A DNA stretch of 64,000 nt from Amycolatopsis sp. (GCA_035551175.1 DASZNR010000154.1:17194-81193); one strand, 5' to 3'. Positions 17,620 to 59,337 are shown, numbered from the stretch's first letter. The notes: generated by a model from the sequence alone, not told the origin. Translations and numbers: made by a program.

Positions 17620-17632
17620 GAGGTGTTTCCTC

Positions 17633-22863: not shown

Positions 22864-22885
22864 AGCGGTTCTCCCAAGCACTTGA

Positions 22886-22918
22886 TTTGGGCTAACTATA
22901 TCAAAGGACTGACCAAAA
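22886..22918 (-). promoter_or_regulatory. promoter/operator module (class 1): minus-strand TTTTGGTCAGTCC-N-TATAGT-TAGCCC
   Basis: AT-rich island 23 nt upstream of GTG 22863. It is collinear with the module at 28023-28057. It contains the GntR/FadR-like half-palindrome GGTCAGTCC and a -10-like TATAGT. Confidence 0.5.
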
Positions 22919-22962
22919 CTGTAGGCGTCGGCCAGCGCGCGGCGGAACGGAATCAGGGTCGG

Positions 22963-24012: not shown

Positions 24013-24084
24013 TGCTCGTGCCTTTCGCCGTTGACGTCACGATTGCTGGTTCAATACGACCCGACCCGGGAAAAATGGTAACTT

Positions 24085-30501: not shown

Positions 30502-32145
30502 TCACACCGTCGTCTCGGCGGCCTTCACCTTCTCCGCGATATCCGCTCGCAGCCGGTGTTTCTGGATCTTCCCGGTGGCCGTCATCGGCAACTCGGGCAC
30601 GACCTCCAGCCGTTCGGGCATCTTCTGGATCGCCAGCCCCTGCCCCAGCAGGAAGTCCTTGATCTCGTCGAGCGTCACGTTCTCGTGGCCGGGCCTCGGC
30701 ACCAGATACAGGCAGATGCGCTCGCCGAGCCGCCGGTCCGGCATCCCGACCACGGCCGCGGCGGCGATCGCCGAATGCCGGGTCAGCAGGTCCTCCACCT
30801 GGCGGACGCTGATGTTCATCCCGCCGCGGATCACGATGTCCTTCAGCCTGCCGGTGACCCGGAGGTAGCCGTCCGCGTCCATCACCCCGAGGTCGCCGGA
30901 ACGGGAGTAGCCATCGGGCGTGAACAGCGCTTCGGTCTCCGTGGGATTGCCGATGTATTCGAGCATGTGCATCGGGCCGCGGTAGGCGATGTCGCCCTCC
31001 TGCCCACGAGGCACCTCCTCGCCCAGTTCGTCGACGATCTTGACCGAACTGCCCGGAAGGACCCGCCCGTCGGAGGTCGACGACCGGGCCGGATCGTCCT
31101 CGACCGTGCACATGCTGGTGGTCACGTTCTCGGTGCGGCCGTAGAGGCTCAGCACCCGGCAGCCGGGCAGCAACCGAGCGGCCTGCTCGACGAACGCGGC
31201 CGGAATCGGCGCGCCCGCCGCGACCCACAACCGCAGGCTGCTCGCGTCGTGCCGGGCCGGGTCGTACACGTCCATCAGCATCTGCAGGAACGTCGTCGCG
31301 GTGACGGACACCGTGCACCCGAAGCGGCGGATGTGGTCCAGCCCGGCCTCCGGCTCCCACACCTCCATGACGTGCGACGCGGCGCCGTGCATGAGCGGGA
31401 GCAGAATGCTGGTGACGAGGCCCGTGGTGTGCGTGATCGGCGACGGCCCGAATTGGACGTCGGTGTCCTGGTAGCCGAATCCCTGGGCCAGCAACCGGGA
31501 TCCGCACGCCAGCGTGTTGAAAGTGTGGAGGCAGCCCTTCGGCCGCGAGGTGGTGCCCGAGCTGTACACGATCACGAAGTGGTCGTCGGCTCCGACTCCC
31601 GGGCCGAGATCGCGGTCGTCGTCGGCTTCCAGCGACGCGAGCGGGATCGTGCCTTCCGCTTCCCCGCGCACCAGCACGAGGGTTTCCAGACCGGCCACGT
31701 CCTGCTGGATGGTGCGATACATGGCGGCATAGTCGAATTTCTTGAAGCTCTGGCAAGTGATCGCCATCTTCGCGCCCGAGTTGCGCACGATGTAGCCGAC
31801 CTCGTCCAGGCGGTAGATCGGCATGATCGGCACCATGATCGCGCCGATCCTGGACAGCGCCACGGCGATCTGCGCGAACTCGACCCAGTTGGGCATCTGC
31901 ACGCACACCCGGTCTCCGACGCCGATCCCCTTGCCCCGGAGGCCTTTCGCCAGCCGGATCGCTCCGTCGCGCAGTTCGCGGAAGGTGAGCGACCGGGTGT
32001 CGTCGGTCAGGAACACCTTGTCCGGCCGCAGTTCCGCCTGCTGTTCGAGCAGCTCGAAGAACGTCTCCCGCCGCCACCGGCCGGTGGCGTGGAAGTGCTC
32101 GATCTCCTCGGCCGAGTAACGATCAGTGACTCGCGCGAACTCCAT
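30502..32145 (-). CDS. acyl-CoA synthetase, cyclohexanecarboxylate-CoA-ligase (AliA)-like
   Basis: ATG 32145 is preceded by AAGGAAG. 547 aa with YSSGTTSRPKG, VPIMPIYR, GRLKDIVIRGGMNIS and TATGKIQKH. It is a paralog of 39304-40929. Confidence 0.9.
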   Translation of the reverse strand: MEFARVTDRYSAEEIEHFHATGRWRRETFFELLEQQAELRPDKVFLTDDTRSLTFRELRDGAIRLAKGLRGKGIGVGDRVCVQMPNWVEFAQIAVALSRIGAIMVPIMPIYRLDEVGYIVRNSGAKMAITCQSFKKFDYAAMYRTIQQDVAGLETLVLVRGEAEGTIPLASLEADDDRDLGPGVGADDHFVIVYSSGTTSRPKGCLHTFNTLACGSRLLAQGFGYQDTDVQFGPSPITHTTGLVTSILLPLMHGAASHVMEVWEPEAGLDHIRRFGCTVSVTATTFLQMLMDVYDPARHDASSLRLWVAAGAPIPAAFVEQAARLLPGCRVLSLYGRTENVTTSMCTVEDDPARSSTSDGRVLPGSSVKIVDELGEEVPRGQEGDIAYRGPMHMLEYIGNPTETEALFTPDGYSRSGDLGVMDADGYLRVTGRLKDIVIRGGMNISVRQVEDLLTRHSAIAAAAVVGMPDRRLGERICLYLVPRPGHENVTLDEIKDFLLGQGLAIQKMPERLEVVPELPMTATGKIQKHRLRADIAEKVKAAETTV

Positions 32146-32195
32146 GGGCGATCTTCCTTGATCTGAAGAGGAATACGGTGCACGACCCGCTTGTC

Positions 32196-32220
32196 GGTCC
32201 AACGCTAATATTGTTGGACC
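32196..32220. promoter_or_regulatory. inverted repeat GGTCCAAC-N9-GTTGGACC (class 2 operator, GGTCC-N15-GGACC)
   Basis: Perfect 8-bp arms around the AT-rich GCTAATATT, about 50 nt upstream of the AliA-like start 32145. It has the same architecture as 39233-39261. Confidence 0.6.
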
Positions 32221-32242
32221 AAAAACGCAATGGTGCCAATGT

Positions 32243-32284
32243 GGCGAAACCTCAAGGAACGCAAGCCTGCCAGGAGGTTTCGCC
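32243..32284 (-). terminator. possible stem-loop downstream of the enoyl-CoA hydratase gene
   Basis: Perfect 11-bp stem GGCGAAACCTC / GAGGTTTCGCC with a large 20-nt loop. A minus-strand T-run follows only after about 12 nt, so this is a weak terminator call. Confidence 0.3.
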
Positions 32285-32353
32285 GCGACGCGGCATGCGA
32301 GAAGCAGCCGCAGGACGGCCAATGGCTATGTGCGGGACAGTGCGGAGCGCACT

Positions 32354-33139
32354 TCAGCGCCGCTGCCACTCCGGACGCCGTTTCTCCCGGAACGCCGCAA
32401 CGCCCTCCCCGAGATCCTCCGTCGTGAAGGCCAGCGCCAGCTGTGCCTGCAACACGTCCAGCGCCTCCGGCAGGCCGAGGTCGCGCGTGGAGTCGATCGC
32501 GTTCTTGCCGAGTTTCATCAGCAGCGGGGACTTTTCCGCCACCCGGTGCGCCCAGGACCGCACGGTCTCGTCGAACTCCGCGTCCGGGACGACCTTGTTC
32601 ACCACGCCGAGGTCCCGCGCCTCGGCGGCGGTGATCTTGTCGCCGAGCATCATCAGTTCGTTGGCCTTCATCCGGTCGACGTTGCGGTAGATCAGCGCGG
32701 AGATCATGAACGGGAACGCCCCGACGTTGATCTCCGGGCAGCCGAACCGCGCGGATTCCTTGGCCAGCACCAGATCGCACGCCAGCGCGAGACCGAAGGC
32801 CCCGGCGAGAACATCGCCGCCCGCCGCGCAGATCACCGGTTTGCCGAGCGCGCCGATGAGCTTGAACAAGCGCGGGAACCGATCGAGCCCGGCATATTTG
32901 ACGATCGGCGGGCGCTTGTCGGCGAAGGCTTTGAGATTGCCGCCGGACGAGAACACCCGGTCGTGCGAGGAGCCCAGCACCACAACCCGGACCTCGTCGT
33001 CCGCGCGGGCGGTTTCCAGTGCCCGCAACAGTTCGTCGAGGAGTTCGTCGCTGAGCGCGTTGCGGGTCGCCGGATCGTCGAGCGTGACGTAGGCCGCGCC
33101 GGCGGCGTCGACCTCGTATCGGACCAGAGCGTCAGTCAT
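32354..33139 (-). CDS. enoyl-CoA hydratase/isomerase (crotonase)
   Basis: 261 aa with FSSGGNL and AAGGDVLAGAFGLALACDL. Its start overlaps the upstream gene by 8 nt. Confidence 0.9.
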   Translation of the reverse strand: MTDALVRYEVDAAGAAYVTLDDPATRNALSDELLDELLRALETARADDEVRVVVLGSSHDRVFSSGGNLKAFADKRPPIVKYAGLDRFPRLFKLIGALGKPVICAAGGDVLAGAFGLALACDLVLAKESARFGCPEINVGAFPFMISALIYRNVDRMKANELMMLGDKITAAEARDLGVVNKVVPDAEFDETVRSWAHRVAEKSPLLMKLGKNAIDSTRDLGLPEALDVLQAQLALAFTTEDLGEGVAAFREKRRPEWQRR

Positions 33140-34112
33140 GCCGCAGAACCACCTTTCCGAAGCCGCCGCCCTGTTCCAGGTAGCGGTGCGCGGCCGCCGC
33201 CTCGTCGAGCGGGAAGACCCGGTCGACGACCGGCGGCGCGATCGACCGGCTGTCCAGCAGGGCGAGCAGCCCCGCGAAATCGCGCGGGCTGCCCATCGTG
33301 GTGCCCAGCAGGCTGTACTGCCCGAAATAGAACGGCCGCACGTCGAGTGGAGCCTTTTCCGCCGCGGAAGCGCCCAGCACCACGAGCCGACCGCCCGGAC
33401 GCAGCGCCTGCACCGACTCCGGCCAGCTGCCGACCGAGTCGAGCACGAGGTCGAAGCCCTTGCCGCCGGGCGAAAGCGCCTTCGCCTGCTGCGCCCAGTC
33501 GCTTTCGGTGTAAAGCACCCCGCCGTCGGCGCCCAGTTCGCGAGCCTGCGAGATCTTGCTCTCCGACGAGGACGTGACCACGACCGAAGCGCCTGCGCCG
33601 CAACCGAAAGCGACTGCCGTCGTCGCGATACCGCCGCCCGCGCCCAAGACGAGCAGCGACTCGCCTTCGCGCAGCCCGCCGCGGCTGAACAACGCCCGGT
33701 AGGTGGTCAACCCGACCAGCGGCAACGCGGCGGCCTGCTCCCAGCTGTATCCGGCCGGACGCGGGGCCACGCACTCCGCAGGCACCTGTACCACCTCAGC
33801 GTAAGTGCCGGGCCGGTGATCCCCGAGGATCTCCCAGCCCGGCGCGGGCGCGGATTCGTCGTCGCCCCACCACAAGGACGGGACGACGACCACCTCTTCG
33901 CCGGTGTCCGTCCGGACGCCAGCACCGTCGGCACCGGGCACATGCGGCAACGGCGATCCATACTGGCCACGCCGGACCAGCACGTCATGCCAGTTCAGCG
34001 CACTCGCCTTGAGCCGGACGGCGACGCAGCCCGGCTCCGGTTCCGGATCGGGCACTTCCTCCGGACGCAGCACGTCGGCAGTCCCGAACTCCCGCAGCAC
34101 GATCGCCCGCAC
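33132..34112 (-). CDS. NADPH:quinone-oxidoreductase-like MDR (zinc-free alcohol dehydrogenase family)
   Basis: GTG 34112 is preceded by GGAGGTGG. It has the GAGGGIAT nucleotide-binding loop and the typical C-terminal GKVVL. Confidence 0.85.
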   Translation of the reverse strand: MRAIVLREFGTADVLRPEEVPDPEPEPGCVAVRLKASALNWHDVLVRRGQYGSPLPHVPGADGAGVRTDTGEEVVVVPSLWWGDDESAPAPGWEILGDHRPGTYAEVVQVPAECVAPRPAGYSWEQAAALPLVGLTTYRALFSRGGLREGESLLVLGAGGGIATTAVAFGCGAGASVVVTSSSESKISQARELGADGGVLYTESDWAQQAKALSPGGKGFDLVLDSVGSWPESVQALRPGGRLVVLGASAAEKAPLDVRPFYFGQYSLLGTTMGSPRDFAGLLALLDSRSIAPPVVDRVFPLDEAAAAHRYLEQGGGFGKVVLRHD

Positions 34113-34126
34113 CCGCCACCTCCGCC

Positions 34127-34150
34127 TTAGGTTTAACTATTGGACCATAA
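34127..34150 (-). promoter_or_regulatory. promoter/operator-like AT-rich element (minus strand TTATGGTCCAATAGTTAAACCTAA)
   Basis: It lies 15-38 nt upstream of GTG 34112. It shares the TGGTCC plus TAGT-type -10-like box with the other modules, but the second half-site is degenerate. Confidence 0.35.
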
Positions 34151-34188
34151 TTCGCGGACGGCTCGCGTTCAAGGCCCCGCCCGGGTTT

Positions 34189-35289
34189 TCAGAGACCCCG
34201 GTCGCCCATGGTCAGCCGGAGATACCGCGAAATGGCCTCCGCCCGGTTCTCCACGCACAGCTTCCGCAAGATGCGCTTGACGTGCGACTTCACCGTGCCG
34301 TCCGCGATCACCAGCTCGTCGGCGATCCGGCTGTTCGTCGCGCCGGTGGCCATCAGCGCCAGCACCTCGAGCTCACGCCCGGTGAGCAGTGCTTCGAGCG
34401 TGGCCGAGGAGCGGGCCGGGGCTGGCGCGGGGCGCAGTGAGTGAAGCGGCCGGGCGGCGAGTTCGATCTCCGCGGACGCGAGGTCCTCGAGCACGGCCTC
34501 CACCGTCCGCATCGCTTCCCGCACCTGCTCCCGTTGTTCCCGCAGGCGACGCAGCAGAACCGCGCGTTCGAAGAGGCGGCCGAAGGCGTCCGCGAACGCG
34601 CCGAGGATGTCCCGGTCCAGTTCGGCGACCGGGCGAGACTCGCAGTCCGCGTGCAGGAAACCGATCACCCGGCCGGTCGGCATCAACGGAGCCGCGACAT
34701 AGGAATTGAGCCCGGAAGCACGCAGCAGCGGCTGGTATACGCGCGGGTCCCCGCGCGGGTCGGTCACCAATGCTGCTTCCCTGCGCCGGACCATCTCGGT
34801 CTCCAGCACCAGGTTGTCCAGCCGGATCTCCGGCACGGTGCGCATCCATTCGCGAAACGCTCGTTCCGGATCGGCGTCGGTCACGGCGAAACTCTTCCAC
34901 GGCCGCCACAGCGAACCCTCGACCTTGGACAGCATCACGCGGTCGAACCCGCACGACCGGACCACCGCCTCGCAGGCACGCGCCAGCAGGCTGTCCGGAT
35001 CGGACACCTTCCGCAACTGGGAGAGCCCATCGTCCAGCGCGTCCAGTCTGCGCGCCCGCTGACCGTCGAGCCATTCTCTGATCTCGTACCGCAAATCCTG
35101 CGTATCAGCGAGGAGGACTGCCAACTGCGGCGCTTCCGGCAACTGCTCGCGCAGCGCAGCGGCGAGGGCGGTGAGCGGCCCGTCGAAACCGGCCAGGCCG
35201 ATCGGTTCGGGCAGCGCCACGCCGGCCCTCGCCGCCGCTTCCCGCAGCAGCGCGCGGCCCCGCTCGGCCAGTTCGGCTTCCGTGCGCAC
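34189..35289 (-). CDS. LuxR-family transcriptional regulator with N-terminal GAF-like sensor domain
   Basis: GTG 35289. The C-terminal HTH is LTGRELEVLALMATGATNSRIADELVIADGTVKSHVKRILRKL. Confidence 0.85.
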   Translation of the reverse strand: MRTEAELAERGRALLREAAARAGVALPEPIGLAGFDGPLTALAAALREQLPEAPQLAVLLADTQDLRYEIREWLDGQRARRLDALDDGLSQLRKVSDPDSLLARACEAVVRSCGFDRVMLSKVEGSLWRPWKSFAVTDADPERAFREWMRTVPEIRLDNLVLETEMVRRREAALVTDPRGDPRVYQPLLRASGLNSYVAAPLMPTGRVIGFLHADCESRPVAELDRDILGAFADAFGRLFERAVLLRRLREQREQVREAMRTVEAVLEDLASAEIELAARPLHSLRPAPAPARSSATLEALLTGRELEVLALMATGATNSRIADELVIADGTVKSHVKRILRKLCVENRAEAISRYLRLTMGDRGL

Positions 35290-35370: not shown

Positions 35371-35922
35371 GTGGACAGGGACCGCAAAATCCTGGACACC
35401 GCCGCCGCGGTCTTCTACGAGAAGGGCTTCCACGGCGTCGGTGTCGACGAGCTCGGCAAGCGCGCCGGCCTGTCCGGGCCCGCGCTGTACCGCCATTTCT
35501 CCGGCAAGGACGAAATCCTCGCCGCGCTCTTCAACGAGGCGCTGGACGAGCTGCTCAGCGCCACCGCGCCGGTGCACGAGGACCCGGCGAAGGATTTGGA
35601 GCGGCTGATCCGCCACCACGTCGGGTTCGCGGTCGGGCACCGGCATCTGGTCAACATCTACCAGCGCGAGGACCGCTCGCTGGCGGAACCGTGGAAACGC
35701 CAATTCGACCGGCGGCGGCGCCAGTACGTGGACCGCTGGGAGACCGCGGTCGCCCGGTGTTACCCCGATGCCGCCGCTGACGCGATCTCCGCGGGCACCC
35801 AGGCGTGCCTCGGGGTCATCTTCTCCATCGCGTACTGGCCGGCGAAGCTGGCGCAGACCCCGGCGCTCAGCGATCTGATCGCTGGCTTCGCCGGCAACGG
35901 CCTGGCCACGCTCCGCCGCTGA
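35371..35922 (+). CDS. TetR-family transcriptional regulator
   Basis: GTG 35371 gives 183 aa. The N-terminal HTH is FYEKGFHGVGVDELGKRAGLSGPALYRHF. Confidence 0.9.
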   Translation: MDRDRKILDTAAAVFYEKGFHGVGVDELGKRAGLSGPALYRHFSGKDEILAALFNEALDELLSATAPVHEDPAKDLERLIRHHVGFAVGHRHLVNIYQREDRSLAEPWKRQFDRRRRQYVDRWETAVARCYPDAAADAISAGTQACLGVIFSIAYWPAKLAQTPALSDLIAGFAGNGLATLRR

Positions 35923-35924
35923 GG

Positions 35925-37163
35925 TCAGCTCTTCCGGAAGCCGAACAGCGAACCGGCGATCCGGCGCAGCTGCAGTTCGTCGGAGCCTTCGGTGATGCGG
36001 TAGCGGCGGTGGTGCCGGTAGATGTGTTCGAAGGGCAGATGCCGGGTGTAACCGGTGCCGCCGTGGATCTGCATCGCCCGGTCCGCGGCGCGGCAGGCCA
36101 GCTGGTTGCCGCGGATGTTGACCATGGAGACCTTGTCCGTGACGCCGGTGCGGCCGTGCGTGTCCATCAGCCAGGCGGTCTTGTACAAGGTGTTGCGCAC
36201 CAGTTCGGCGTCGGTCTGCAGTTCGACGAGTTGCCACTGGATGCCCTGCTGCTCGTGCAGCGCTTTGCCGAACACCGTCCGCTCCCCCGCGTAGCGCACG
36301 CTGCGGTCGATGCAGAACTGCGCGGCACCGAGTGACGAAGCAGCCTGCCGGATCCGGTTCTCGTGCACGAAGAGCTGCGCGCAGTCGAGGCCGCGGCCCT
36401 CCTCGCCGAGAATCGCCGACGAGGGCACCCGGACCTCGTTCAGCCGGACCTCCGCGTGATCGCTCGGCATGTTCAATGTCCAGTGGTAGTACGGAATCTC
36501 GAAGCCCGGCGCGTTCGTCGGCACGAGGAACGCGGTGATCCCGGCCGCCTTGCCCGGCTCGCCGGAGGTCCGGGCGAACACCAGATCGACTTCGGCCACG
36601 TCCACCACGCTGTTGAACCGCTTGGCGCCCTCGATCACCCAGTCGTCCCCGTCGCGGCGCGCAGTGGTCTCCAGGTAGGTCGCGTCGCTGCCGTGGCCGG
36701 GTTCGGTGAGTCCGAAGGCCATCTCCAGCTCGCCTGAGACGAGCCGCTCCAGGTACGCCTCCTTCTGCGCGGGCGTGCCGTACTCGTGCAGCACCAGGGC
36801 GAGCGGAAGATTCGCCACCACGGACGCCTCGTGGCTCAGCTCCGCGTGGAGCCCGGGTCCGAGCCCGGCGAGGTGCTCGCGGATGACGGCCATCGCCAGG
36901 TTGGTCCCGTCCTTGCCGCCGAGGGCGGACGGCAGCGGGTACCGGTAGAACCCGGCGGCGTCGGCCCGGCGGCGAGCTTCGCGCATCAGTTCGCGCCAGC
37001 GGCGGGTGGGGATGCCGTCGCGGTCCACGTCGGTGCGGGTGAACTCGCGGCGGTGGTCAAACAGGTCCGGATTGTCCGCTTCCAGCGGCTTGATTTCGGC
37101 CTCGATGAACCGGTCGAGGTCCTGGACGAACTGTTCGACGTCGGCGGGGATGGACCACTCCAT
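35925..37163 (-). CDS. acyl-CoA dehydrogenase, FadE2 / ACAD10-11 C-domain type
   Basis: ATG 37163 is preceded by GGAGGAA. 412 aa with FIEAEIKPLE, MAFGLTEPGHGSDAT, HENRIRQAASSLGAAQ and FEHIYRHHRRYRITEGSDE, typical of the FadE2 clade as I recall it. Confidence 0.9.
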   Translation of the reverse strand: MEWSIPADVEQFVQDLDRFIEAEIKPLEADNPDLFDHRREFTRTDVDRDGIPTRRWRELMREARRRADAAGFYRYPLPSALGGKDGTNLAMAVIREHLAGLGPGLHAELSHEASVVANLPLALVLHEYGTPAQKEAYLERLVSGELEMAFGLTEPGHGSDATYLETTARRDGDDWVIEGAKRFNSVVDVAEVDLVFARTSGEPGKAAGITAFLVPTNAPGFEIPYYHWTLNMPSDHAEVRLNEVRVPSSAILGEEGRGLDCAQLFVHENRIRQAASSLGAAQFCIDRSVRYAGERTVFGKALHEQQGIQWQLVELQTDAELVRNTLYKTAWLMDTHGRTGVTDKVSMVNIRGNQLACRAADRAMQIHGGTGYTRHLPFEHIYRHHRRYRITEGSDELQLRRIAGSLFGFRKS

Positions 37164-37180
37164 GTGGATTCCTCCAGTGG

Positions 37181-38215
37181 CTAGGTTGACTGGGCGAGGA
37201 TGTCCCGGCCCCGTTCGATCACTCCGGGCAGGCTCTCGGCCGCGGTGACGAGGCGGGCCTCGGGAGCGGCGCTGCGCCGGTTCCGCTTCACGAACACCGA
37301 CAGCGTCGCCGCCGCTTTGTAGTGGCAGTAGGCGAGAAACCACGGCAGGCCGGGGAGATCGTCGCCGCGGACCTCCTGGTAGGCGTCCAGCAAGGCGGCC
37401 CGCGACGGCATTCCGCGGCCCGCCCGAACGTTCGCCTCGTCGCGGTATTCGTGGAAGCGGTGCGGCGGATCGGTGTGCATCAGCAGCCAGGCGAGATCCG
37501 CCCGGGGATCGCCGACCGACCAGATCTCCCAGTCGATCACCGCGGCGAGCCGTTCCCCGGTGAACAGCATGTTGGCCAGCCGGTAGTCCCCGTGCGACAA
37601 GCACGGCGCGACCGGAGCCGGAACACGGGCGGCAAGCTCGCGGTAAAGCTGCTCGTGCCGGGGCGCGATTCCCGGGTCGACCGTGTCGAGCAGTCGCGCC
37701 CAGCGATCCAGTTCGTCGCGGACGGGTATCGCCCGCTCCCTCGGCGGCGGCACCTTCTGCAGCCGCGCGAGGGCCCGGGCCGCCGCGAGCACGCGGGCCG
37801 TGACCACGCTCGGCGACGGAGGTTGCGCAGTGACGTCCAGCAACGGTTCGTAGGACTGGCCCGGCACCAGGGTCATCGCGAACAGCGGCGGGCTGTCGTC
37901 GTCCTCGGCCAGCACCTCGGGTACCGGCACGCTGCCGTCCGCACCCAGCAGTCTCAGGATTCTGGCCTGGCGCAACACATCCCGGTTGCGCACCGGAGCA
38001 AGACCGGGCGGGGCCACCTTGAGCACCACACGGGTGTCGGGTCGCTCCGGCCGACGCAGAACCGAGGCGAAGGTCAGGCTGGAAACGCCGCCGGGCAGCC
38101 GGTGCAAGCCAGTCAGTTCGCTGCCGGGCCAGTGCCGCACCACCCGGCGGCGCAGTTGATCGTGATCGAGTTCCGGCACCGCCTCACTGTGTCCAGCGGG
38201 CCACCAAGCACGCAA
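37181..38215 (-). CDS. phosphotransferase-family kinase (APH fold, ACAD10/11-N-like)
   Basis: It has the catalytic loop SHGDYRLANML and DWE. The start is uncertain (TTG 38215 in the track; GTG 38179 is possible). It lies 18 nt upstream of the FadE2-type ACAD. Confidence 0.8.
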   Translation of the reverse strand: MRAWWPAGHSEAVPELDHDQLRRRVVRHWPGSELTGLHRLPGGVSSLTFASVLRRPERPDTRVVLKVAPPGLAPVRNRDVLRQARILRLLGADGSVPVPEVLAEDDDSPPLFAMTLVPGQSYEPLLDVTAQPPSPSVVTARVLAAARALARLQKVPPPRERAIPVRDELDRWARLLDTVDPGIAPRHEQLYRELAARVPAPVAPCLSHGDYRLANMLFTGERLAAVIDWEIWSVGDPRADLAWLLMHTDPPHRFHEYRDEANVRAGRGMPSRAALLDAYQEVRGDDLPGLPWFLAYCHYKAAATLSVFVKRNRRSAAPEARLVTAAESLPGVIERGRDILAQST

Positions 38216-38303
38216 CAGCCCGGCGACGCGGCACTGGAGATCTCGACAGTCGCCGCTTTGCGCGAACGCGAGACGTCCGGGCCAGGCGTGTTAGAAGCGG
38301 AGG

Positions 38304-39050
38304 ATGAACCGATTTCGTCTCGACGGCAAAGTCGCCATCGTGACCGGGGCGTCCTCCGGACTCGGTGTCGCGTTCGCCCTCGCTCTCGCCGAGGCAGGCG
38401 CTTCGGTCGCGCTCGGCGCCCGCCGCGAAGAGCAGCTCCGGGAAACCGCGCGGGCTGCCGGGAAGAACGCACTGGCAGTGCGCACCGACGTCACCGACAT
38501 CGACGACTGCAACGCACTCGTGGCCGCAGCGAAGCAGAAGTTCGGCAGGGTCGACATCCTGATCAACAATGCCGGCACGGGCGGGGAATACCACCCGGCG
38601 ACCGAAGACCCGCCGGAACAGTTCCGGTCGGTGGTGGAACTGAACCTCTTCGCGGCCTACTGGATGGCGCAGGCCTGCGGCCAGGTGATGGGGCCGGGTT
38701 CGTCGGTGGTCAACATTTCCAGCGTGATGGCGCTGACCACGGCGAAGATGCCCGCCGCCGGATACAGCGCGAGCAAAGCCGGGGTGCTGGGCCTCACCCG
38801 GGACCTCGCCGCGCAGTGGGGCCCGCGCGGGATCCGGGTGAACGCGCTGCTGCCCGGCGTCTTCCCCAGCGAGGCGACCGCGCACTACAGCGAGAACTAC
38901 CAGCGCAAGATCATCGACGCGAAGATCCCGCTCGGCCGGATCGGCGACCCGGCCGACGTCGCCGCGGCCGCCGTCTTCCTGGCCTCGGACGCGAGCGCCT
39001 ACATCACCGGGGTCAGCCTTCCGGTGGACGGCGGCGTGCTGATCAACTGA
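38304..39050 (+). CDS. SDR oxidoreductase
   Basis: 248 aa with TGASSGLG, NNAG, YSASKAG and ITGVSLPVDGG. Confidence 0.9.
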   Translation: MNRFRLDGKVAIVTGASSGLGVAFALALAEAGASVALGARREEQLRETARAAGKNALAVRTDVTDIDDCNALVAAAKQKFGRVDILINNAGTGGEYHPATEDPPEQFRSVVELNLFAAYWMAQACGQVMGPGSSVVNISSVMALTTAKMPAAGYSASKAGVLGLTRDLAAQWGPRGIRVNALLPGVFPSEATAHYSENYQRKIIDAKIPLGRIGDPADVAAAAVFLASDASAYITGVSLPVDGGVLIN

Positions 39051-39214
39051 CCCTCCGCCTTGCGCGGCGCGGTCACCGCCCGGAAACAGAACGCACACGC
39101 GGGCACCCGTGCTCCGGTTCGCGGGGCGAGCGGCACCGTCAGGCCGGGCATGGCGTTCACGCTGCAGATGCTGGGGTCGTGGCCGAGCGGGCGGCACAGG
39201 CACTGACATTCCAT
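38999..39214 (-). CDS. hypothetical small Cys-rich protein (71 aa), speculative
   Basis: ATG 39214. In the non-overlapping part about 85% of third positions are G/C by my count (47/55), which is coding-like. It has six Cys (CxCxC, C17, CxxC). Its last 17 codons overlap the convergent SDR 3' end, which argues against it. Confidence 0.25.
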   Translation of the reverse strand: MECQCLCRPLGHDPSICSVNAMPGLTVPLAPRTGARVPACAFCFRAVTAPRKAEGQLISTPPSTGRLTPVM

Positions 39215-39232
39215 CCGGCCATGCTTGCATCT

Positions 39233-39261
39233 TTGGTCCGATCATTATAAGTTTGGACCAA
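39233..39261. promoter_or_regulatory. inverted repeat TTGGTCC-N15-GGACCAA (class 2 operator)
   Basis: 7-bp perfect arms flank the AT-rich GATCATTATAAGTTT (-10-like TATAAG), 43 nt upstream of ATG 39304. It has the same GGTCC-N15-GGACC geometry as 32196-32220. Confidence 0.6.
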
Positions 39262-39303
39262 CTTGAGTGACGCACACCACTCGCTCATGGGAAGGGCACA
39301 CGC

Positions 39304-40929
39304 ATGTCAACGCCGACCGTGCGGGACCGCTATCGCGAGGACGAGATCCAGGCCTTCTACGAGGCCGGTTACTGGCACCGGGACGGATTGGCCGAACTCC
39401 TGGAAACCCGGAGCCGGACCCACGGCGCCAAAGTCTTCGTCTCCGACGGAACGACCAGCCGCAGTTACTCCGCGGTGCGTTCGCAGAGCCTGCGGCTGGC
39501 CGGCGGGCTGCGCGAACTGGGCATCGGGCGGGGCGACCGGGTCGCCGTCCAACTGCCCAACTGGACCGAGTTCGCCGTCATCGCCGCCGCCGTCAGCAGG
39601 CTCGGCGCGGTGCTGGTCCCGATCATGCCGATCTACCGGGCGACCGAGGTGGGCTACGTGCTCGGGCACTCCGGCGCCAAGGTCGCGATCACCTGCGAAG
39701 AGTTCAAGGGTTTCGGGCATCTGGAGATGTTCTCCGCGCTGCGCAAGGAAAATCCGGCGTTCGAATCGCTGGTCGTCGCACGCGGCCAGCACGGGTCCGC
39801 CGCCTCGCTCGACGACCTGATGGCCGGGCCGGAGCCGGACCTGGCCCCGCCGCCCTCGGCGGACGACGGGTTCCTCATCGTCTACACCTCCGGCACCACC
39901 TCGCGCCCCAAGGGCTGTTTCCACACCTTCAACACGCTGCGCGCCAGCGCCGAGGCCATCGCGAAATCCGTGCAGTACGCCGAGGATGACGTCCAGTTCG
40001 GCCCGTCTCCGGTCACCCACAGCACCGGGCTCGTGACCAGCGTGGTGCTGCCGCTCCTCGCGGGCGCGTCCTCGCACTTCATGGAGGCGTGGGAGCCGGA
40101 GGAAGGGCTGCAGCGCATCGCCAAGCACGGCTGCACTGCCGCGGTCACCGCGACGCCGTTCCTGCAGATGCTCACCGCCGCCCACGATTCCGATCGGCAC
40201 GACGCGAGCAGCCTGCGGCTGTGGGTGTGCGCGGGCTCGCCCATCCCCGGCTCGATCGTGCGCCGCGCGGCCGAGAAGTTCGCCGGCTGCCGGGTGCTGA
40301 GCCTGTACGGGCGCTCGGAGAACTTCCTGACCACCATGTGCACGCTGGACGATCCGCCGGACCGCTCGGCGACCTCCGACGGCAGCGCGGTCGCCGGAGC
40401 CGCGGTGAAGATCGTCGATGAGACCGGCGCCGAAGTGCCGCGCGGCACCGAGGGCGACATCGCCTACCACGGGCCCAGCCACATGCTGGAGTACTACCGC
40501 GACCCGGAACAGACTTCAGCATTGTTCACGGCTGAGGGGTATTCCCGCTCCGGCGATCTCGGTTTCATGGACGAGGACGGGTACGTGCGGGTCACCGGGC
40601 GGCTCAAGGACATCGTGATCCGCGGCGGCCTCAACATCAGCGCACGCGAGCTGGAGGATCTGCTGCTCGAACATCCCGCCGTCGGGGCGGTGGCCGTGGT
40701 CGGCATGCCGGACGAGCGGCTCGGCGAACGCGTCTGCGCCTACGTCGTGCCCGCGGGCGACGCGGCTCCGGCGCTCGCGGACCTGACCTCCTACCTCCGG
40801 GAGCGCGACGTCGCCACGCCGAAGCTCCCGGAACGGCTGGAGGTGGTCGCCGAACTGCCGATGACCGCCACCGGGAAAGTGCAGAAACACGTGCTGCGCG
40901 CCGAAATCAAAACCAAACTCGCCCAGTGA
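39304..40929 (+). CDS. acyl-CoA synthetase, AliA-like (paralog of 30502-32145)
   Basis: 541 aa with YTSGTTSRPKG, VPIMPIYR, GRLKDIVIRGGLNIS and TATGKVQKH. By eye it is about 60-70% identical to the paralog. Confidence 0.9.
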   Translation: MSTPTVRDRYREDEIQAFYEAGYWHRDGLAELLETRSRTHGAKVFVSDGTTSRSYSAVRSQSLRLAGGLRELGIGRGDRVAVQLPNWTEFAVIAAAVSRLGAVLVPIMPIYRATEVGYVLGHSGAKVAITCEEFKGFGHLEMFSALRKENPAFESLVVARGQHGSAASLDDLMAGPEPDLAPPPSADDGFLIVYTSGTTSRPKGCFHTFNTLRASAEAIAKSVQYAEDDVQFGPSPVTHSTGLVTSVVLPLLAGASSHFMEAWEPEEGLQRIAKHGCTAAVTATPFLQMLTAAHDSDRHDASSLRLWVCAGSPIPGSIVRRAAEKFAGCRVLSLYGRSENFLTTMCTLDDPPDRSATSDGSAVAGAAVKIVDETGAEVPRGTEGDIAYHGPSHMLEYYRDPEQTSALFTAEGYSRSGDLGFMDEDGYVRVTGRLKDIVIRGGLNISARELEDLLLEHPAVGAVAVVGMPDERLGERVCAYVVPAGDAAPALADLTSYLRERDVATPKLPERLEVVAELPMTATGKVQKHVLRAEIKTKLAQ

Positions 40930-42395
40930 CCGCGGAAACGTGGCGGGCGCTGCTGGACCAGGCGCCGGTGGTCGCCGGGTTCGGGAGCGCACACCTGCGC
41001 TGCCCCGGCGAAGTCAGCACCGGGATCAGCCACGACGCCGCGGGAACCGTCGTTTCCGTGCCGGTGGGCACGGCCGCGGTGCTCACCCTCACCGACCCCG
41101 CGTACATCACGGTCGACGACCAGGTGCTCGAACGCCTCACCGCGCTCGCCGCGCTGGCGTCCGCCGCGCTTGCCGAATCCGGTCGGCTCGCCGCGGAGAC
41201 GGCCGCCGAACGACGCTTGAGCGAACTCGTCGTCGGCCCCGGCGGCCTCGCCGCGCTAGTCGCCGCATGCGCCGAACTCACCGGCAAGGTCACCGCGCTC
41301 TTCGACGTCCAAGACCGGCTGATCGCGACGGAAAGCCCGCCCGGTGCAAGCCCGATCCGCCTGCGCTCCCTCGCCGAAATCGGGGAACGGGACGGCCTCG
41401 TGCCCGCGAGCCGGCACGGGCTCACCCGGCGGCATCTCGTCGTTCCCGCCGTCCATCGCGGCGAAACCTTCGGCTGGCTCGTGCTGGTCGAGCATCCTTC
41501 CGTGCTCCGTCCCGAGGACCGCCTCGTCGCGGAACGCACCGCTGTGCACGCGGGTACCGAGTTCGCGGTGCAACGCCGGGTCGCCGCGGCGGCGTGGAAC
41601 GCCCGTTCGTCGCTGGCGCGCCAGCTGATCCGGGGTTCCTCCACCATGGACGACCTGCGGGCGAGCGGCGAGTACCTCGGCGTCGACACCAAGGCCCGGC
41701 GGGTGCTCGCGTACGTCATCGGTTGCGCGAACGCCGAGCGGCTCGCGCACGCCGTCGAGGAACGGCTCGGTGCCGAGGTGCTGGCCACCCGGGGCTCGGA
41801 GGGCGTGTTGCTGCTGATCGAGGCGACCGAAACCGGCATGGCCGCGCGCACGAAGGCGGCTCTGCGCGCGGTCGCCGCCGAACTGCCGGGCTGCGCCGGC
41901 CTCGTCGCCGGAGTGTCGCCCGTGAGCGAACCGGCCAAACTCGGGCGCGCGTATCGGGAGGCGCAGGAGGCGGCGCGGTGTGTGAACCGGTTCGTCGGTC
42001 CGTCGTCGCCGCGAGTGCTGGCCGCCGACGATCTCGGCCCGGCCCGGCTGTTCGTCGCGAACAGTGCGGTCGCGGCCGTTCGCGAGTACCTGCACGACAT
42101 TCTCGGCCCGCTGCTGACCGGCGAGACCGCCGAAGCGGATCTGCTGTCGACCTTGCAACAGTTCTTCGACAGCGGCCGCAGCGTACGCGTGTCGGCCGCG
42201 CGGCTGGGCGTGCACGAGAACACCGTCCGGCTGCGGCTGGCGCGGGTGCGCCACGCCACCGGGCTCGACGTCGCAGCCGATGCGAACGATCAGCTCAGCG
42301 TGCAGACGGCCTTGCTCGTGCTGCGGTTGCAGGGACATCCGGCGCTGCCGTCGTTCGACGAGGGCCTATCCGACCACGGAAGGAAAACAGCGTGA
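40926..42395 (+). CDS. PucR/CdaR-family transcriptional regulator
   Basis: GTG 40926 overlaps the ligase stop (GTGA). The C-terminal PucR-type HTH is SVRVSAARLGVHENTVRLRLARV. Confidence 0.8.
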   Translation: MTAETWRALLDQAPVVAGFGSAHLRCPGEVSTGISHDAAGTVVSVPVGTAAVLTLTDPAYITVDDQVLERLTALAALASAALAESGRLAAETAAERRLSELVVGPGGLAALVAACAELTGKVTALFDVQDRLIATESPPGASPIRLRSLAEIGERDGLVPASRHGLTRRHLVVPAVHRGETFGWLVLVEHPSVLRPEDRLVAERTAVHAGTEFAVQRRVAAAAWNARSSLARQLIRGSSTMDDLRASGEYLGVDTKARRVLAYVIGCANAERLAHAVEERLGAEVLATRGSEGVLLLIEATETGMAARTKAALRAVAAELPGCAGLVAGVSPVSEPAKLGRAYREAQEAARCVNRFVGPSSPRVLAADDLGPARLFVANSAVAAVREYLHDILGPLLTGETAEADLLSTLQQFFDSGRSVRVSAARLGVHENTVRLRLARVRHATGLDVAADANDQLSVQTALLVLRLQGHPALPSFDEGLSDHGRKTA

Positions 42396-43090
42396 AGCTC
42401 AAGGCACTGGTCACCGGGGCGGCCCGCGAGGGCGGGATCGGGCAGGCGATCGCGGCGCGGCTGGCGGCCGACGGCGTCGTGGTCGAGACGCTGGACCGCG
42501 AGCCGGGCTGCACCTACCAGGCCGACATCGCCGCCGGCGAGCTTCCCGCGCTGGACGACATCGACGTCTACGTCGGCAACGCCGCACTCACCACGATGTT
42601 CGGTTCCGCGCACCGGTTTTCCCTGGAGCGTTGGGAGAAGGACCTGGCAGTCAACCTGACCGGCACGTTCCGGGTGCTTCAGGCCTGCCTGCGCGGGATG
42701 CGAGAGCGCGGGTTCGGCCGCGTAGTGCTGGTCTCCAGCACCGCCGGCACGCAGGGCCTGCCCGGTCAGGTCTCGTACAGCACCAGCAAAGCCGGGCTGC
42801 TGGGGATGATGAAGACAGTCGCGGCGGAGAACGTCACCGCCGGGATCACGGCCAACGCCGTCCTGCCGGGCATGACCGCCAGCTCCGGCGTGCTGTCGAT
42901 GCCGCCGGACATCGTCGACGCCTGGCGGGAAAGCATGCCGGGCGGCCTGGTGCGGCCCGAGGACATCGCCGAAGCGGTCGCCTTCTTCGCCTCGCCCGCC
43001 GCGTCGCGGGTGACCGGCCAGGTGCTCACCGTCGACGGCGGCGACAGCCTCAACATCCGATCGGTCACGTCGCCGAAGGTGCGGAGCTGA
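42392..43090 (+). CDS. SDR oxidoreductase
   Basis: GTG 42392 overlaps the regulator stop and is preceded by GGAAGGAAAA. Motifs are VTGAAREGGIG, YSTSKAG and VTGQVLTVDGG. Confidence 0.85.
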   Translation: MKLKALVTGAAREGGIGQAIAARLAADGVVVETLDREPGCTYQADIAAGELPALDDIDVYVGNAALTTMFGSAHRFSLERWEKDLAVNLTGTFRVLQACLRGMRERGFGRVVLVSSTAGTQGLPGQVSYSTSKAGLLGMMKTVAAENVTAGITANAVLPGMTASSGVLSMPPDIVDAWRESMPGGLVRPEDIAEAVAFFASPAASRVTGQVLTVDGGDSLNIRSVTSPKVRS

Positions 43091-43092: not shown

Positions 43093-44070
43093 ATGCGGGG
43101 CTTTCTTGTCACCGAACTGACCGGCCCCTCCGGCGGCTCCGTCGCCGAGGTGCCCGAGCCCGACGGCGCGCATCCCTGGGCGGACGGGCGGCTGCTGATC
43201 GAGGTGCACGCGGCCGGAGTGTCCTTTCCGGACCTCCTGCAGACCCGAGGCCAGTACCAGCACGGCGCGCCGCCGCCGTACGTCGCGGGCGGCGAAGTGG
43301 CCGGGGTCGTAAGGGAGGCCCCTGCGGGCTCCGGCTTGCGACCGGGAGACCGGGTGGCGAGCCTGTCGGTCTGGGGCGCGCTCGCCGAGCGCGCGCTTGC
43401 GATCCCGCACTACACGGTGAAACTGCCAGACGATTTCGACTTCACCGCGGGCGCAGCGCTGTACCTCAACTACGCGACCGCGTGGTTCTCCTTGCACCGC
43501 GTCGGATTCCAACGGGGTGAGCAGGTGCTGGTGCACGGTGCGTCCGGCGGTGTCGGCACCGCGACCCTCCAACTGGTGCGCGCGCTGGGCGGGCATCCGA
43601 TAGCCGTTGTCTCCACAGTGGACAAAGAACGCGTCGCGAGGGAGGCCGGTGCCGAGGAGGTGCTGCGCACCGGCGACGACTGGCCGGAGAAGGTCCGGCA
43701 GCTGACCGGCGGCGGCGCGCAGATCGTCGTCGATCCCGTCGGCGGCGACCGGTTCACCGATTCCCTCCGCTGCCTCGACGTCGGCGGACGGCTGGCCGTG
43801 GTCGGCTTCGCCGCCGGGACGATCCCGACGGTGAAGGTGAACCGGCTGCTGCTGCGGGACCTGAGCGTAGTCGGCGTGGCGCTGGACCCCTACGTGGCGA
43901 GATTCCCCTCCGTGGTCCGGAATTTGGCGCGCGAGCTGGAGAACCTGGCGGCCTCGGGCGCGATCCGGCCGCTCGTCGGGCACGTCCTCGACCTAGCCGA
44001 AGCGCGCCGGGCCCTGGAACTGCTCGACACCCGGCGGGCCACCGGCAAGGTGGTCGTGCGGATCCGCTGA
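43093..44070 (+). CDS. NADPH:quinone-oxidoreductase-like MDR (paralog class of 33132-34112)
   Basis: ATG 43093 gives 325 aa with VHGASGGVGT and the C-terminal GKVVV. Confidence 0.85.
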   Translation: MRGFLVTELTGPSGGSVAEVPEPDGAHPWADGRLLIEVHAAGVSFPDLLQTRGQYQHGAPPPYVAGGEVAGVVREAPAGSGLRPGDRVASLSVWGALAERALAIPHYTVKLPDDFDFTAGAALYLNYATAWFSLHRVGFQRGEQVLVHGASGGVGTATLQLVRALGGHPIAVVSTVDKERVAREAGAEEVLRTGDDWPEKVRQLTGGGAQIVVDPVGGDRFTDSLRCLDVGGRLAVVGFAAGTIPTVKVNRLLLRDLSVVGVALDPYVARFPSVVRNLARELENLAASGAIRPLVGHVLDLAEARRALELLDTRRATGKVVVRIR

Positions 44071-44096: not shown

Positions 44097-45068
44097 TCAG
44101 CCGCGTTTGACCAGCGGCAGCTCGGGCCGCCGATCCGAGACCCCGGCCTTGTCCGCGAGTTCGCCGGACACCGTGCCGGACGAGAAGAACTCGTGGAAGA
44201 CCGGGTTGAACAAGTCCGGCCGGTCGGTCTGGCCCTGGTGCCCGCAGTCGTCGGGGTAGAAGAACTGGACGTTCGGCAGGTGGTCCTCCTGCGTGTAGCC
44301 CCATTCGACCGGCGTCAGGATGTCCTGGCGGCCGTAGAGGTAGATGCCGGGGATGTCGAGCCGGTCGAGACGGCCCTTGGTGACCAGCCGCGCGGCGCGG
44401 TTCTGGTCCGTCCACGGCGCGAGGTGGCGGTACTGCAGCAGCGTCGGCCAGAACTGCCGGTGCGCCTCCATCCGGTCGCGGGCCGACCGGAACCGCATCT
44501 CCACGAGGTCGTCGCTGACCGCCTCGGTGCGGTGGATGATCGACTCCATCATCGAGCGCATGCCCTCGCGCGTGCCGTCGTAGGCGGTCATGTGGAACTG
44601 GCCGCGCGGCGGCGGGACGTCCTCGGGCACGACGTCGCCGATGTCGCCGGCGATCAACGCGAAGCTGGCCACCCGGTCCGGATGCGCCACCGTGTAGTTC
44701 ACCGTGTTCATGCAGCCCATCGAGTTGCCCGCGAGGTGGAACCGGTCCAGGCACAGCGCGTTCGCGAACTCGTGGACGAAATCGACGAAGTCCTCCATCC
44801 CGCGCGGCCAGTGTTCCGGGCGCGGGTCGGAGAGGCCGAACGCCGGCATGTCCGGGCAGTACACGCGGAAGCCGCGCTCGCCGAGATACGGGGCCATGAA
44901 CCGCCAGCCCGCCAGCCCGGAGGACCCGGGAAGCCCGCCGTGCAACAGGATCACGGCCGGGCCGGCGTCCCCGGCGGTCATGTAGTGCGCCCGCGCGCCG
45001 CTGGCCAGGCGGACCCACCGGCTCGCCAGTCCCGGCACCTCGACCAGGTCTTCGCTCGTCAACGTCAT
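44097..45068 (-). CDS. alpha/beta-fold hydrolase (C-C bond / meta-cleavage-product hydrolase-like)
   Basis: ATG 45068 overlaps the upstream stop (ATGA). It has the HGGLPG oxyanion region, the nucleophile elbow GNSMGC and a C-terminal His (DDCGHQGQ). Confidence 0.85.
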   Translation of the reverse strand: MTLTSEDLVEVPGLASRWVRLASGARAHYMTAGDAGPAVILLHGGLPGSSGLAGWRFMAPYLGERGFRVYCPDMPAFGLSDPRPEHWPRGMEDFVDFVHEFANALCLDRFHLAGNSMGCMNTVNYTVAHPDRVASFALIAGDIGDVVPEDVPPPRGQFHMTAYDGTREGMRSMMESIIHRTEAVSDDLVEMRFRSARDRMEAHRQFWPTLLQYRHLAPWTDQNRAARLVTKGRLDRLDIPGIYLYGRQDILTPVEWGYTQEDHLPNVQFFYPDDCGHQGQTDRPDLFNPVFHEFFSSGTVSGELADKAGVSDRRPELPLVKRG

Positions 45069-46075
45069 CGCTGTGCTCCTTCGTTCGCGTTCGGTGCCGG
45101 CAGGCCCAGGAATTCGAAAGCGTTCGCCGCCAGGAATTCGTGGCCGGCGCGCCGGGGAAGGGCCTCGCTTCGCAGCCCTGATTGGATCGATGCCATCGAT
45201 TTCGCCATCTGGTCCGGGAAGAACGGGGCGTCGCTGCCCAGCAGCAGCCGCTCCGCGCCGAAGCGGTGGACCAGCAACCGCAGGTGCTCGTCGTCGAAAA
45301 CCAAGGTGTCGGCGTACAAGCGGCGCGCCTCGCGGTCCCAGTCCTCGGCGGTGTCCCCTCGGGACAGAGCGGCGGCGACGCGGAGACGGGGATAGGCCCA
45401 CGGGAACACGCCACAGCCGTGCGCCAGCGCGACCCGCAGCCCGCGGTACCGCCCGAGAACACCGCCGAACACCAACGCCGACGCGGCGATCGCGGTGTCG
45501 GTCAACATGCCGAGTCCGAGGTCGTACGGTGCGCCCGCACGCCGCACGACGCCCTTCCCGCCCTCCACCGGATGCACGAAGACCGCTGCCCCGAGGTCGT
45601 CGCACGCCGCCCAGAAGGAGTCGAGTTCGGAAGCGTCGAGATCGAGTTCGCCGACTCTCGTCCCGATCTCGACTCCGCGCAAGCCGATCCGGCGGCACCG
45701 CTCGAGCTCTGTTCTCGCGGATTCGCCGTCGGCCAGCGGGAGGCAGCCCAATCCGAACAGGCGGCCACCGGCGGCCTCGCATGCCGACGCGATCGAATCG
45801 TTCGTCGCGGCGGCGTAGGCGGGCTGCTCGGCGGCGTACTCCATGGCGACCGGCACCGGGGAGATCACCTGATGGGAAATCCCGGCCCGGTCCATCTCCG
45901 CGAGCCGCCGGGGCACGTCCCAGAGCACCGGCGACACCACCCGGAAAGTGTTCTCCCCGCGCATGATCCGCCCGCTGTCCCCGTCGAGCACGAGCCGGGG
46001 CGCGTCGCCCGCGGGCAGCGGCAGGTCCGTCCCGAAGTGGTGCGCGTGCGCGTCGACGGCGGTGCGAGCGGTCAT
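45065..46075 (-). CDS. amidohydrolase-2 family metal-dependent hydrolase/decarboxylase (ACMSD-like)
   Basis: 336 aa with an N-terminal DAHAHH metal motif and a late GSDAPF motif. Confidence 0.85.
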   Translation of the reverse strand: MTARTAVDAHAHHFGTDLPLPAGDAPRLVLDGDSGRIMRGENTFRVVSPVLWDVPRRLAEMDRAGISHQVISPVPVAMEYAAEQPAYAAATNDSIASACEAAGGRLFGLGCLPLADGESARTELERCRRIGLRGVEIGTRVGELDLDASELDSFWAACDDLGAAVFVHPVEGGKGVVRRAGAPYDLGLGMLTDTAIAASALVFGGVLGRYRGLRVALAHGCGVFPWAYPRLRVAAALSRGDTAEDWDREARRLYADTLVFDDEHLRLLVHRFGAERLLLGSDAPFFPDQMAKSMASIQSGLRSEALPRRAGHEFLAANAFEFLGLPAPNANEGAQR

Positions 46076-46187
46076 GCGACGGACGTTAACCGCGGCGACG
46101 CGCCTCGGGCGCGCACGGTTTCAGTGGCCGGAACTCGGTCCCCGGGCGGCATTCCCACCGAGGTCTCCCCTGGTCGCTGTGGACGGG

Positions 46188-46235
46188 CAAAACGAAAGAC
46201 CGCGGCACCGGGTTCGCACACCCGGCGCCGCGGTC
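46188..46235 (-). terminator. intrinsic terminator after the aldehyde dehydrogenase gene (end of the mce-MMPL string)
   Basis: 16-bp stem GACCGCGGCACCGGGT / ACCCGGCGCCGCGGTC (1 mismatch) with a 6-nt loop, followed on the minus strand by CTTTCGTTTTG. Confidence 0.65.
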
Positions 46236-46246
46236 CGCGGTTTCCG

Positions 46247-56726: not shown

Positions 56727-56729
56727 CAG

Positions 56730-59332: not shown

Positions 59333-59337
59333 CGGAA

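Follow-up and report, generated by a model that had tools for sequence, protein, structure and literature searches.

We analysed a stretch of 64,000 nt from Amycolatopsis sp. (GCA_035551175.1, DASZNR010000154.1:17194-81193; "the window" below means this whole stretch), with a G+C content of ~70%, and in it a module in which an APH-fold kinase gene adjoins an acyl-CoA dehydrogenase (ACAD) gene. Pfam confirms each of the five genes that an earlier annotation made from the DNA alone (the sequence-only reading) had placed here: the focal ACAD (35925-37163, minus strand, 412 aa), the focal kinase (37181-38179, minus strand, 332 aa; PF01636, 2e-33), a classical short-chain dehydrogenase/reductase (SDR) divergent from the kinase (SDR1; 38304-39050, plus strand), an AMP-forming acyl-CoA ligase (LIG; 39304-40929, plus strand), and a second APH kinase, kin2 (9482-10498, minus strand; 9e-48). 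All three domains of the focal ACAD, N-terminal, middle and C-terminal (PF02771/PF02770/PF00441), score above cut-offs. The open reading frame (ORF) of the focal kinase extends to a TTG at 38215, where the sequence-only reading had begun it, but the start is most likely the GTG at 38179, since the protein then agrees with an identical database entry (P0001) and, at its N-terminus, with homologues. The kinase-ACAD spacing, previously given as 18 nt, measures 17 nt, and a GGAGGA ribosome-binding site precedes the ACAD start within this gap.

The four genes first listed for the module are present, but the module is larger, and also comprises two regulators, a second SDR and an MDR-family oxidoreductase. 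LIG is followed on the plus strand by a PucR-type regulator with GGDEF_2 and HTH_30 domains (40926-42395), a short FabG-like SDR of 232 aa (SDR2; 42392-43090) and the MDR-family oxidoreductase (MDR2; 43093-44070), and from their 4-nt overlaps or 2-nt spacing we assign these genes to one operon with LIG as its first gene. A TetR regulator (TetR_C_24; 35371-35922, plus strand) is convergent with the ACAD. The 253 nt between SDR1 and LIG (39051-39303) are non-coding, with no Rfam match or convincing small ORF, and are probably the promoter region of the LIG-PucR-SDR2-MDR operon. A search for TetR-operator palindromes in both divergent intergenic regions returned one weak 15-nt palindrome only, a promoter and terminator scan stayed at background level, and Rfam and tRNA scans gave no matches.

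Beta-oxidation genes are so numerous in the window, with at least 5 ACADs, 7 crotonases, 4 ligases and 6 SDRs, that co-occurrence inside it is little proof by itself, and we compared the best 80 species-level loci that encode a relative of the focal kinase, of 497 found. The focal kinase is 94% identical to that of Amycolatopsis echigonensis. We find an orthologue of the focal ACAD (66-98% identical) no more than 6 kb from the kinase in 66 of the 80 loci, ranging from Actinomycetes to Thermoleophilia, and several of the loci without one are truncated contigs. SDR2 is present in 64/80 loci, PucR in 40/80, SDR1 in 39/80, TetR in 28/80 and the ligase in just 17/80, while the presence of MDR2 is variable. 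In Solirubrobacterales, SDR2 lies immediately upstream of the kinase on the same strand, and the module stands alone among unrelated genes as a minimal kit, in which two SDRs accompany the kinase and a convergent ACAD; in one Solirubrobacteraceae locus a methylmalonyl-CoA-mutase-family gene (L083 6527-8188) lies just upstream of this minimal four-gene module on the opposite strand. Across loci the ACAD is far more conserved than the kinase (66-98% versus 44-94% identity). No phosphatase or phospholipid gene is among the conserved neighbours of the module in the examined loci. The conserved core is one or more SDRs, the kinase and the ACAD. The proposal that kinase and ACAD form a functionally coupled pair with SDR partners is borne out by the counts of 66/80 and 64/80, though the most conserved partner is SDR2, which the sequence-only reading had not listed, rather than the SDR that it named. 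Its view that the enzyme logic is that of the Lva and ACAD10/11 systems holds for the kit, but less so for the ligase, which is weakly conserved.

Next, we examined the lineage of the ACAD. The group of ACAD10, ACAD11 and LvaC is a distinct subgroup, whose bacterial members are nearer to ACAD10/11 than to other bacterial ACADs; in it a catalytic aspartate replaces the usual glutamate (D753 in mouse ACAD11), and the active-site helix carries an HCMR motif (H634, R637) and an upstream arginine, R626 (PMC12440821, PMC11342911, from whose descriptions we also take the features of LvaC). Upon ungapped alignment of the mouse ACAD11 C-terminus, as given in a PDB alignment, to the focal ACAD, D753 (in LADGPDEVH) falls on E392 (in ITEGSDELQ), so that the focal protein has Glu for Asp, R626 falls on F265, and the H634, C, M and R637 of the HCMR motif fall on Q273, A274, A275 and S276, respectively. 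E392 is invariant in 64 orthologues and the residues at the HCMR and R626 positions are invariant or nearly so; FDHRRE (35-40), H106, LFVHENRIRQAAS (264-276) and YRHHRRYRITEG (382-393) are invariant throughout the family. Where FadE2-type members carry RLGPGRIHHCMR, the focal ACAD carries LFVHENRIRQAASS; the true members from Streptomyces, Sulfitobacter and Pseudoalteromonas all have RLGPGRIHHCMR and also LADGPDEVH. None of the motifs HCMR, ADGPDE and GPGRI is present in any of the six reading frames of the window.

Similar results were obtained from scores and trees. The ACAD11 C-terminus scores 152 bits against 4hr3, a genuine FadE2-like Mycobacterium abscessus protein, versus 57 against the focal ACAD and 58 against 4u83, an ordinary Brucella ACAD. 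In a PDB search with the whole focal ACAD, butyryl-CoA dehydrogenases are the best matches and ACAD11 ranks 25th, and its N-terminal 161 aa show no specific FadE2 affinity. True FadE2-type ACADs are 51-63% identical to mouse ACAD11, whereas identity between the focal ACAD and a true member is 31%, and in a simple neighbour-joining tree of few sequences (as is our kinase tree) the FadE2-type proteins group with ACAD11 and the focal proteins form a separate clade. AlphaFold 2 predicts an ordinary ACAD fold for the focal ACAD (pLDDT 82), with TM values of 0.77-0.85 to ACAD structures; in Foldseek the best E-values go to short-chain ACADs and the query-normalised TM values of 4hr3 (0.85) and ACAD11 (0.82) are slightly above the others, a comparison that confirms the fold and is without power to separate subfamilies. 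From the motif, bit-score and clade evidence, the assignment of this protein to the FadE2/ACAD10-11 type by the sequence-only reading is therefore unsupported, and FadE2-type membership is ruled out by motifs, scores, tree and the 31% identity. Features common to both types are a length of ~410 aa with an N-terminal extension and a kinase that adjoins the ACAD, the latter seen in ACAD10/11 and its split orthologues (Streptomyces NBC_00388, Pseudoalteromonas pPBSW1, M. abscessus 4hr3).

Upon closer examination of the invariant residues, the substrate helices of the focal ACAD appear, from the alignments, unusually polar and basic. H106, H267, E268, N269, R272, Q273, H384, H385 and R386 are invariant, where ordinary ACADs have Gly, Ile or Ala, and H267, E268, N269, R272 and Q273 replace the usual D/E-G-G-R-I-G-I on the substrate helix. 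H106 aligns with the arginine in the GYRS segment of glutaryl-CoA dehydrogenase, which we take to bind the substrate carboxylate. The focal ACAD thereby resembles anion-pocket ACADs, namely glutaryl-CoA dehydrogenase (Arg94) and 3-sulfinopropionyl-CoA desulfinase, in having a polar or basic residue on helix E; it differs from them in that this residue is His, not Arg, in NCBIfam scores far below the cut-offs (176 versus 470 and 166 versus 600), and in having a kinase partner, which they do not.

The focal kinase carries the motifs HGDYRLAN and IDWEIWSVGDP (DWE..GDP), invariant in 20 homologues, and thus shares HGDxRxxN and DWE with the kinases of ACAD10/11-type split systems; no variation is seen at its beta3 Lys, HGD Asp, Asn and DWE Asp. 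It differs from ACAD10-type kinases, which pair a beta3 Arg with an alphaC Glu, in having Lys and Gln at these positions, and the alphaC Gln, in an LRQ motif, is invariant across the focal family. In the PDB it matches ACAD10-type kinases at 1e-12 to 2e-9, the best being 9o56 (1e-12), which we take, by its HYDYK motif, as the ACAD10-kinase homologue of Caldalkalibacillus thermarum (PMC13596139). The same structure is the best match of kin2, which has the motifs HNDYRLGN and LDWELATLGDP and matches 9o56 and 3dxp (Cupriavidus) at 2e-50 and ACAD11 at 3e-31. A hidden Markov model (HMM) of the focal kinase family gives 105 bits for kin2, 93 for 9o56, 82 for 3dxp and 74 for the ACAD11 kinase domain, versus 23 for the aminoglycoside kinase NPTII, which served as outgroup only. 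Because of these scores we regard the family as related to ACAD10-type and not to antibiotic kinases: the sequence-only reading was right that the nearest characterised relatives are ACAD10/11-N-like, and an antibiotic-kinase identity is ruled out. In the kinase tree, the focal family is sister to the ACAD10/11-N clade and not inside the clade of ACAD11, 3dxp, 9o56 and the FadE2-adjacent kinases, in which kin2 and the Streptomyces partner kinase of a FadE2-type ACAD fall. Kin2 is accordingly a genuine ACAD10/11-N-like kinase, as had been suggested; the two kinases of the window are related, as also stated, but do not belong to one subfamily.

Both ACAD types occur well beyond this genome. In a tblastn search of plasmids, focal-type ACADs (55-60% identical, with all signature motifs) were found in haloarchaea and Sulfitobacter, where they adjoin an APH kinase only ~30% identical to the focal one. 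The Sulfitobacter order is ligase, kinase, DUF6285, ACAD, crotonase, crotonase and thiolase; in Halomarina, genes for a ligase, a crotonase and an F420 oxidoreductase of the TIGR03617 type (L086 9886-10878) are among those nearby. A small protein lies between kinase and ACAD in both, namely the DUF6285 protein of 131 aa in Sulfitobacter (L087 6559-6954) and one of 159 aa with no Pfam match in Halomarina (L086 6403-6882), in a position reminiscent of LvaB. True FadE2-type ACADs occur frequently on plasmids, among them those of Rhodococcus, Streptomyces and Sulfitobacter. The unfused ACAD10/11 form, a FadE2-type ACAD with a kinase, is found elsewhere in actinomycetes, as on a plasmid of Streptomyces sp. 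NBC_00388, where the ACAD lies directly downstream of the kinase, and Pseudoalteromonas pPBSW1 carries a FadE2-type ACAD-SDR-kinase-phosphatase-SDR cluster. One Sulfitobacter plasmid carries both the focal and the FadE2 type, and the types are sometimes adjacent. In soil metagenomes, at least 7999 of 8000 scored focal-lineage ACAD candidates had E <= 1e-60.

Taken together, the module is a conserved catabolic kit that combines an APH-type kinase with a dedicated FAD ACAD and one or two SDRs; the dehydrogenase comes from another ACAD lineage than ACAD10/11 and LvaC, with different active-site residues. In this genome TetR and PucR are predicted to control the kit and an acyl-CoA ligase to supply it. 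The reading we prefer, at somewhat less than even confidence and by analogy, is that the kit may be a non-orthologous counterpart of the phosphorylate-then-eliminate systems for a hydroxyacyl-CoA. The module would then probably be a parallel version of the ACAD10/11-Lva pathway, and its substrate probably a hydroxyacyl-CoA that the canonical system does not take. Of the simple hydroxyacyl-CoAs, those with a 4-hydroxyl are, to our knowledge, the only ones that must be activated before they can enter beta-oxidation. In such a route, the ligase would make the CoA thioester, the SDRs would bring an oxo or hydroxy group into the correct hydroxyl configuration, and the kinase would phosphorylate the hydroxyl with ATP; Glu392 of the ACAD would take the alpha-proton with expulsion of the phosphate, and the resulting enoyl-CoA would be fed into beta-oxidation by the neighbouring crotonases. 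We prefer this reading because the kinase-ACAD pair and SDR2 are retained in most loci (66/80 and 64/80) and in the minimal form in Solirubrobacterales, because the kinase keeps all catalytic residues and is nearest to ACAD10/11-type kinases, because the same ACAD lineage adjoins APH kinases in Halomarina and Sulfitobacter, because the canonical Pseudoalteromonas cluster also combines an ACAD and a kinase with two SDRs, and because of the invariant polar and basic residues on the ACAD substrate helices, with H106 at the position of the glutaryl-CoA dehydrogenase arginine.

Several observations weigh against this reading. R626, H634 and R637 of ACAD11, for which a role in handling the phosphate has been shown or argued, are all absent from the focal ACAD, as is the catalytic Asp; in the focal kinase family, Glu stands in place of the CoA-contacting R176 of the ACAD11 kinase, and Gln in place of the alphaC Glu. 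The pocket-lining role of the invariant ACAD residues is read from alignments, not coordinates. Our literature search found no paper on the focal ACAD lineage and no biochemistry for it, and the database names of the ACAD and the kinase alike are generic. According to a 2026 preprint, prokaryotic ACAD10-type kinases phosphorylate 1-O-alkylglycerols (PMC13596139), a non-CoA lipid, and family resemblance therefore does not fix the substrate; the reported substrate of the C. thermarum enzyme (9o56) is an ether-lipid alcohol, not a CoA ester (PMC13596139), and the focal kinase shares its DWE motif but is only distantly related to it. We saw no ether-lipid genes in the window. Some of these observations also favour a rival that we hold to be somewhat improbable but by no means remote, in which kinase and ACAD would belong to one pathway without a shared phospho-intermediate, the ACAD being an FAD- and electron-transfer-flavoprotein-dependent dehydrogenase for a polar acyl-CoA and the kinase acting on some other hydroxylated intermediate, which may be no CoA ester, as with the 1-O-alkylglycerols that ACAD10-type kinases phosphorylate. 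The canonical Glu base, both signature regions, the ordinary fold and the best matches among short-chain ACADs fit such a dehydrogenase, as do the missing phosphate-handling residues, while the loss of R176 and the alkylglycerol kinase activity fit such a kinase. A shared intermediate, however, explains more easily why this ACAD is strictly paired with APH kinases in both bacteria and archaea, even where the kinases are ~30% identical, and the conserved neighbours of the module in the loci examined include neither a phosphatase nor a phospholipid gene.

The sequence-only reading had instead proposed that the module is the unfused form of ACAD10/ACAD11 and the same enzyme set as the Pseudomonas putida Lva operon, and would thus act on 4-hydroxyacyl-CoAs such as 4-hydroxyvaleryl-CoA. 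LvaABCDE comprises a kinase (LvaA), an ACAD-family protein (LvaC), an SDR (LvaD) and a ligase (LvaE) (PMC6692424, PMC11342911, PMC12440821), and the module matches it in gene content, with the same APH-type kinase, ACAD, SDR and acyl-CoA ligase families, and in the proposed logic of reducing, phosphorylating and eliminating; its kinase is also related to the ACAD10/11 kinase domain. Orthology is nonetheless very improbable and is contradicted by the ACAD, which lies outside the ACAD10/11/LvaC clade and fails every sequence feature of the group: LvaC is reported with the catalytic Asp and the ACAD10/11 active-site residues, whereas the focal ACAD has Glu392 and none of them, and its 31% identity to a true member stands against the 51-63% that true members share with mouse ACAD11. 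The focal kinase likewise lies outside the LvaA/ACAD10-N clade. Comparison of SDRs between canonical and focal clusters gave only generic identities of 21-40%, with 21-29% for those of one canonical cluster. Because both ACAD types are found on one Sulfitobacter plasmid, we consider their functions paralogous. The window has no LvaB-like ORF, and neither the 17-nt kinase-ACAD gap nor the 253-nt SDR1-LIG gap holds a plausible small one; some lva clusters of Pseudomonas likewise lack LvaB (PMC6692424). Equally remote is a regulatory kinase or pseudo-enzyme that phosphorylates the ACAD or another protein, or serves as a structural partner: the replacement of the alphaC Glu by Gln across the whole kinase family and the much faster evolution of the kinase than of the ACAD would suit it, but its catalytic residues (beta3 Lys, HGD Asp, Asn and DWE Asp) do not vary, the fold family is one of small-molecule kinases, and the SDR partners argue for a metabolite that bears a hydroxyl. 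That the two genes are adjacent by chance, in an island so rich in ACADs, crotonases, ligases and SDRs, is barely credible; the adjacency is kept in 66/80 loci across classes, as a stand-alone four-gene kit, and in archaea and alphaproteobacteria, and chance co-occurrence is ruled out by the synteny counts.

For 4-hydroxy acids, the assignment of the phosphorylate-then-eliminate route to ACAD10/11 and LvaA/LvaC is recent, and so far a single ACAD subgroup, which has an Asp base and the HCMR motif, is associated with it. The focal lineage, which a Glu base and the signatures FDHRRE, HENRIRQ and YRHHRRYR appear to mark from haloarchaea to actinomycetes, is plentiful in soil metagenomes; in two domains of life it is firmly linked to kinases, and it is found alongside the canonical type. 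Under the phosphorylate-then-eliminate reading of the kit, we advance three further proposals, each speculative. Two independently recruited ACAD lineages might work with APH-type kinases, an idea that we put forward with some doubt; the focal ACAD could conceivably eliminate phosphate from a hydroxyacyl-CoA that ACAD10/11/LvaC refuse on account of its stereochemistry, position, or branched or alicyclic skeleton, which we rate as rather unlikely; and a similarly doubtful suggestion is that in some genomes the focal kinase and kin2 both feed one ACAD. If the elimination reading is true, the chemistry may not need the ACAD10/11 active-site solution; otherwise, the lineage may reveal a different kinase-dependent acyl-CoA reaction. 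In either case, a neighbouring kinase and ACAD give no grounds for an "Lva-like" or "ACAD10/11-like" label from gene content alone.

Upon examining the rest of the window, we observe that kin2 has its own run of genes on the minus strand. An amidase (7944-9485), kin2 and a DUF7064/DUF7065 protein (10495-11436) overlap by 4 nt each and therefore appear translationally coupled; the PDB search found no relative of the DUF7064/DUF7065 protein, and in Rhodococcus another DUF7064 gene (L001 11329-12345) is found close to the focal module. The kin2 operon further has two crotonases (11433-12248 and 12260-13066), an F420-type LLM oxidoreductase (13066-14082), a family III CoA-transferase (14093-15262) and a BadH-like SDR (16861-17619), a homologue of which lies directly upstream of SDR2-kinase in 33/80 loci. 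The operon at 11433-24036 has in all four crotonases, the CoA-transferase, the BadH-like SDR, an acetyl-CoA hydrolase/transferase, an HMG-CoA lyase (324 bits, above the cut-off), a thiolase, an SDR and two ACADs, and contains no carboxylase. The focal kinase and ACAD share one run of genes with homologues from the kin2 operon (crotonases, CoA-transferase, F420 oxidoreductase and kin2 itself) in Saccharopolyspora, Frankiales and Solirubrobacterales, and the kin2 operon and the focal module probably serve one pathway. The oxidoreductase at 13066-14082 matches the F420-dependent TIGR03617 family best, at 193 bits and so short of the cut-off of 278; the Halomarina gene is of this family too, and Bac_luciferase genes flank the kinase in Rhodococcus and Streptomyces loci.

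On the other side of the TetR gene lies an accessory block (30502-35289, minus strand) with a second ligase, LIG2 (30502-32145), a crotonase (32354-33139), an MDR (33132-34112) and a GAF-LuxR regulator (34189-35289), each kept beside the module in 11-17 of the 80 loci. Downstream of the module, an alpha/beta hydrolase, an Amidohydro_2 protein and an aldehyde dehydrogenase occupy 44097-47692 (minus strand), the first two being kept beside it only in close Amycolatopsis relatives. At the left end of the window (5-7901, plus strand), we find the C-terminal part of a P450, cut by the window edge, a ferredoxin reductase, a zinc alcohol dehydrogenase, an aldehyde dehydrogenase, a crotonase, an ACAD and an SDR, a set that looks like a front end that hydroxylates and oxidises to an acid. 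Finally, the region 51491-63715 (minus strand) holds a Mce/Mla-type lipid uptake cluster with several MlaD/Mce4_CUP1 proteins, an ABC ATPase and an MlaE permease.

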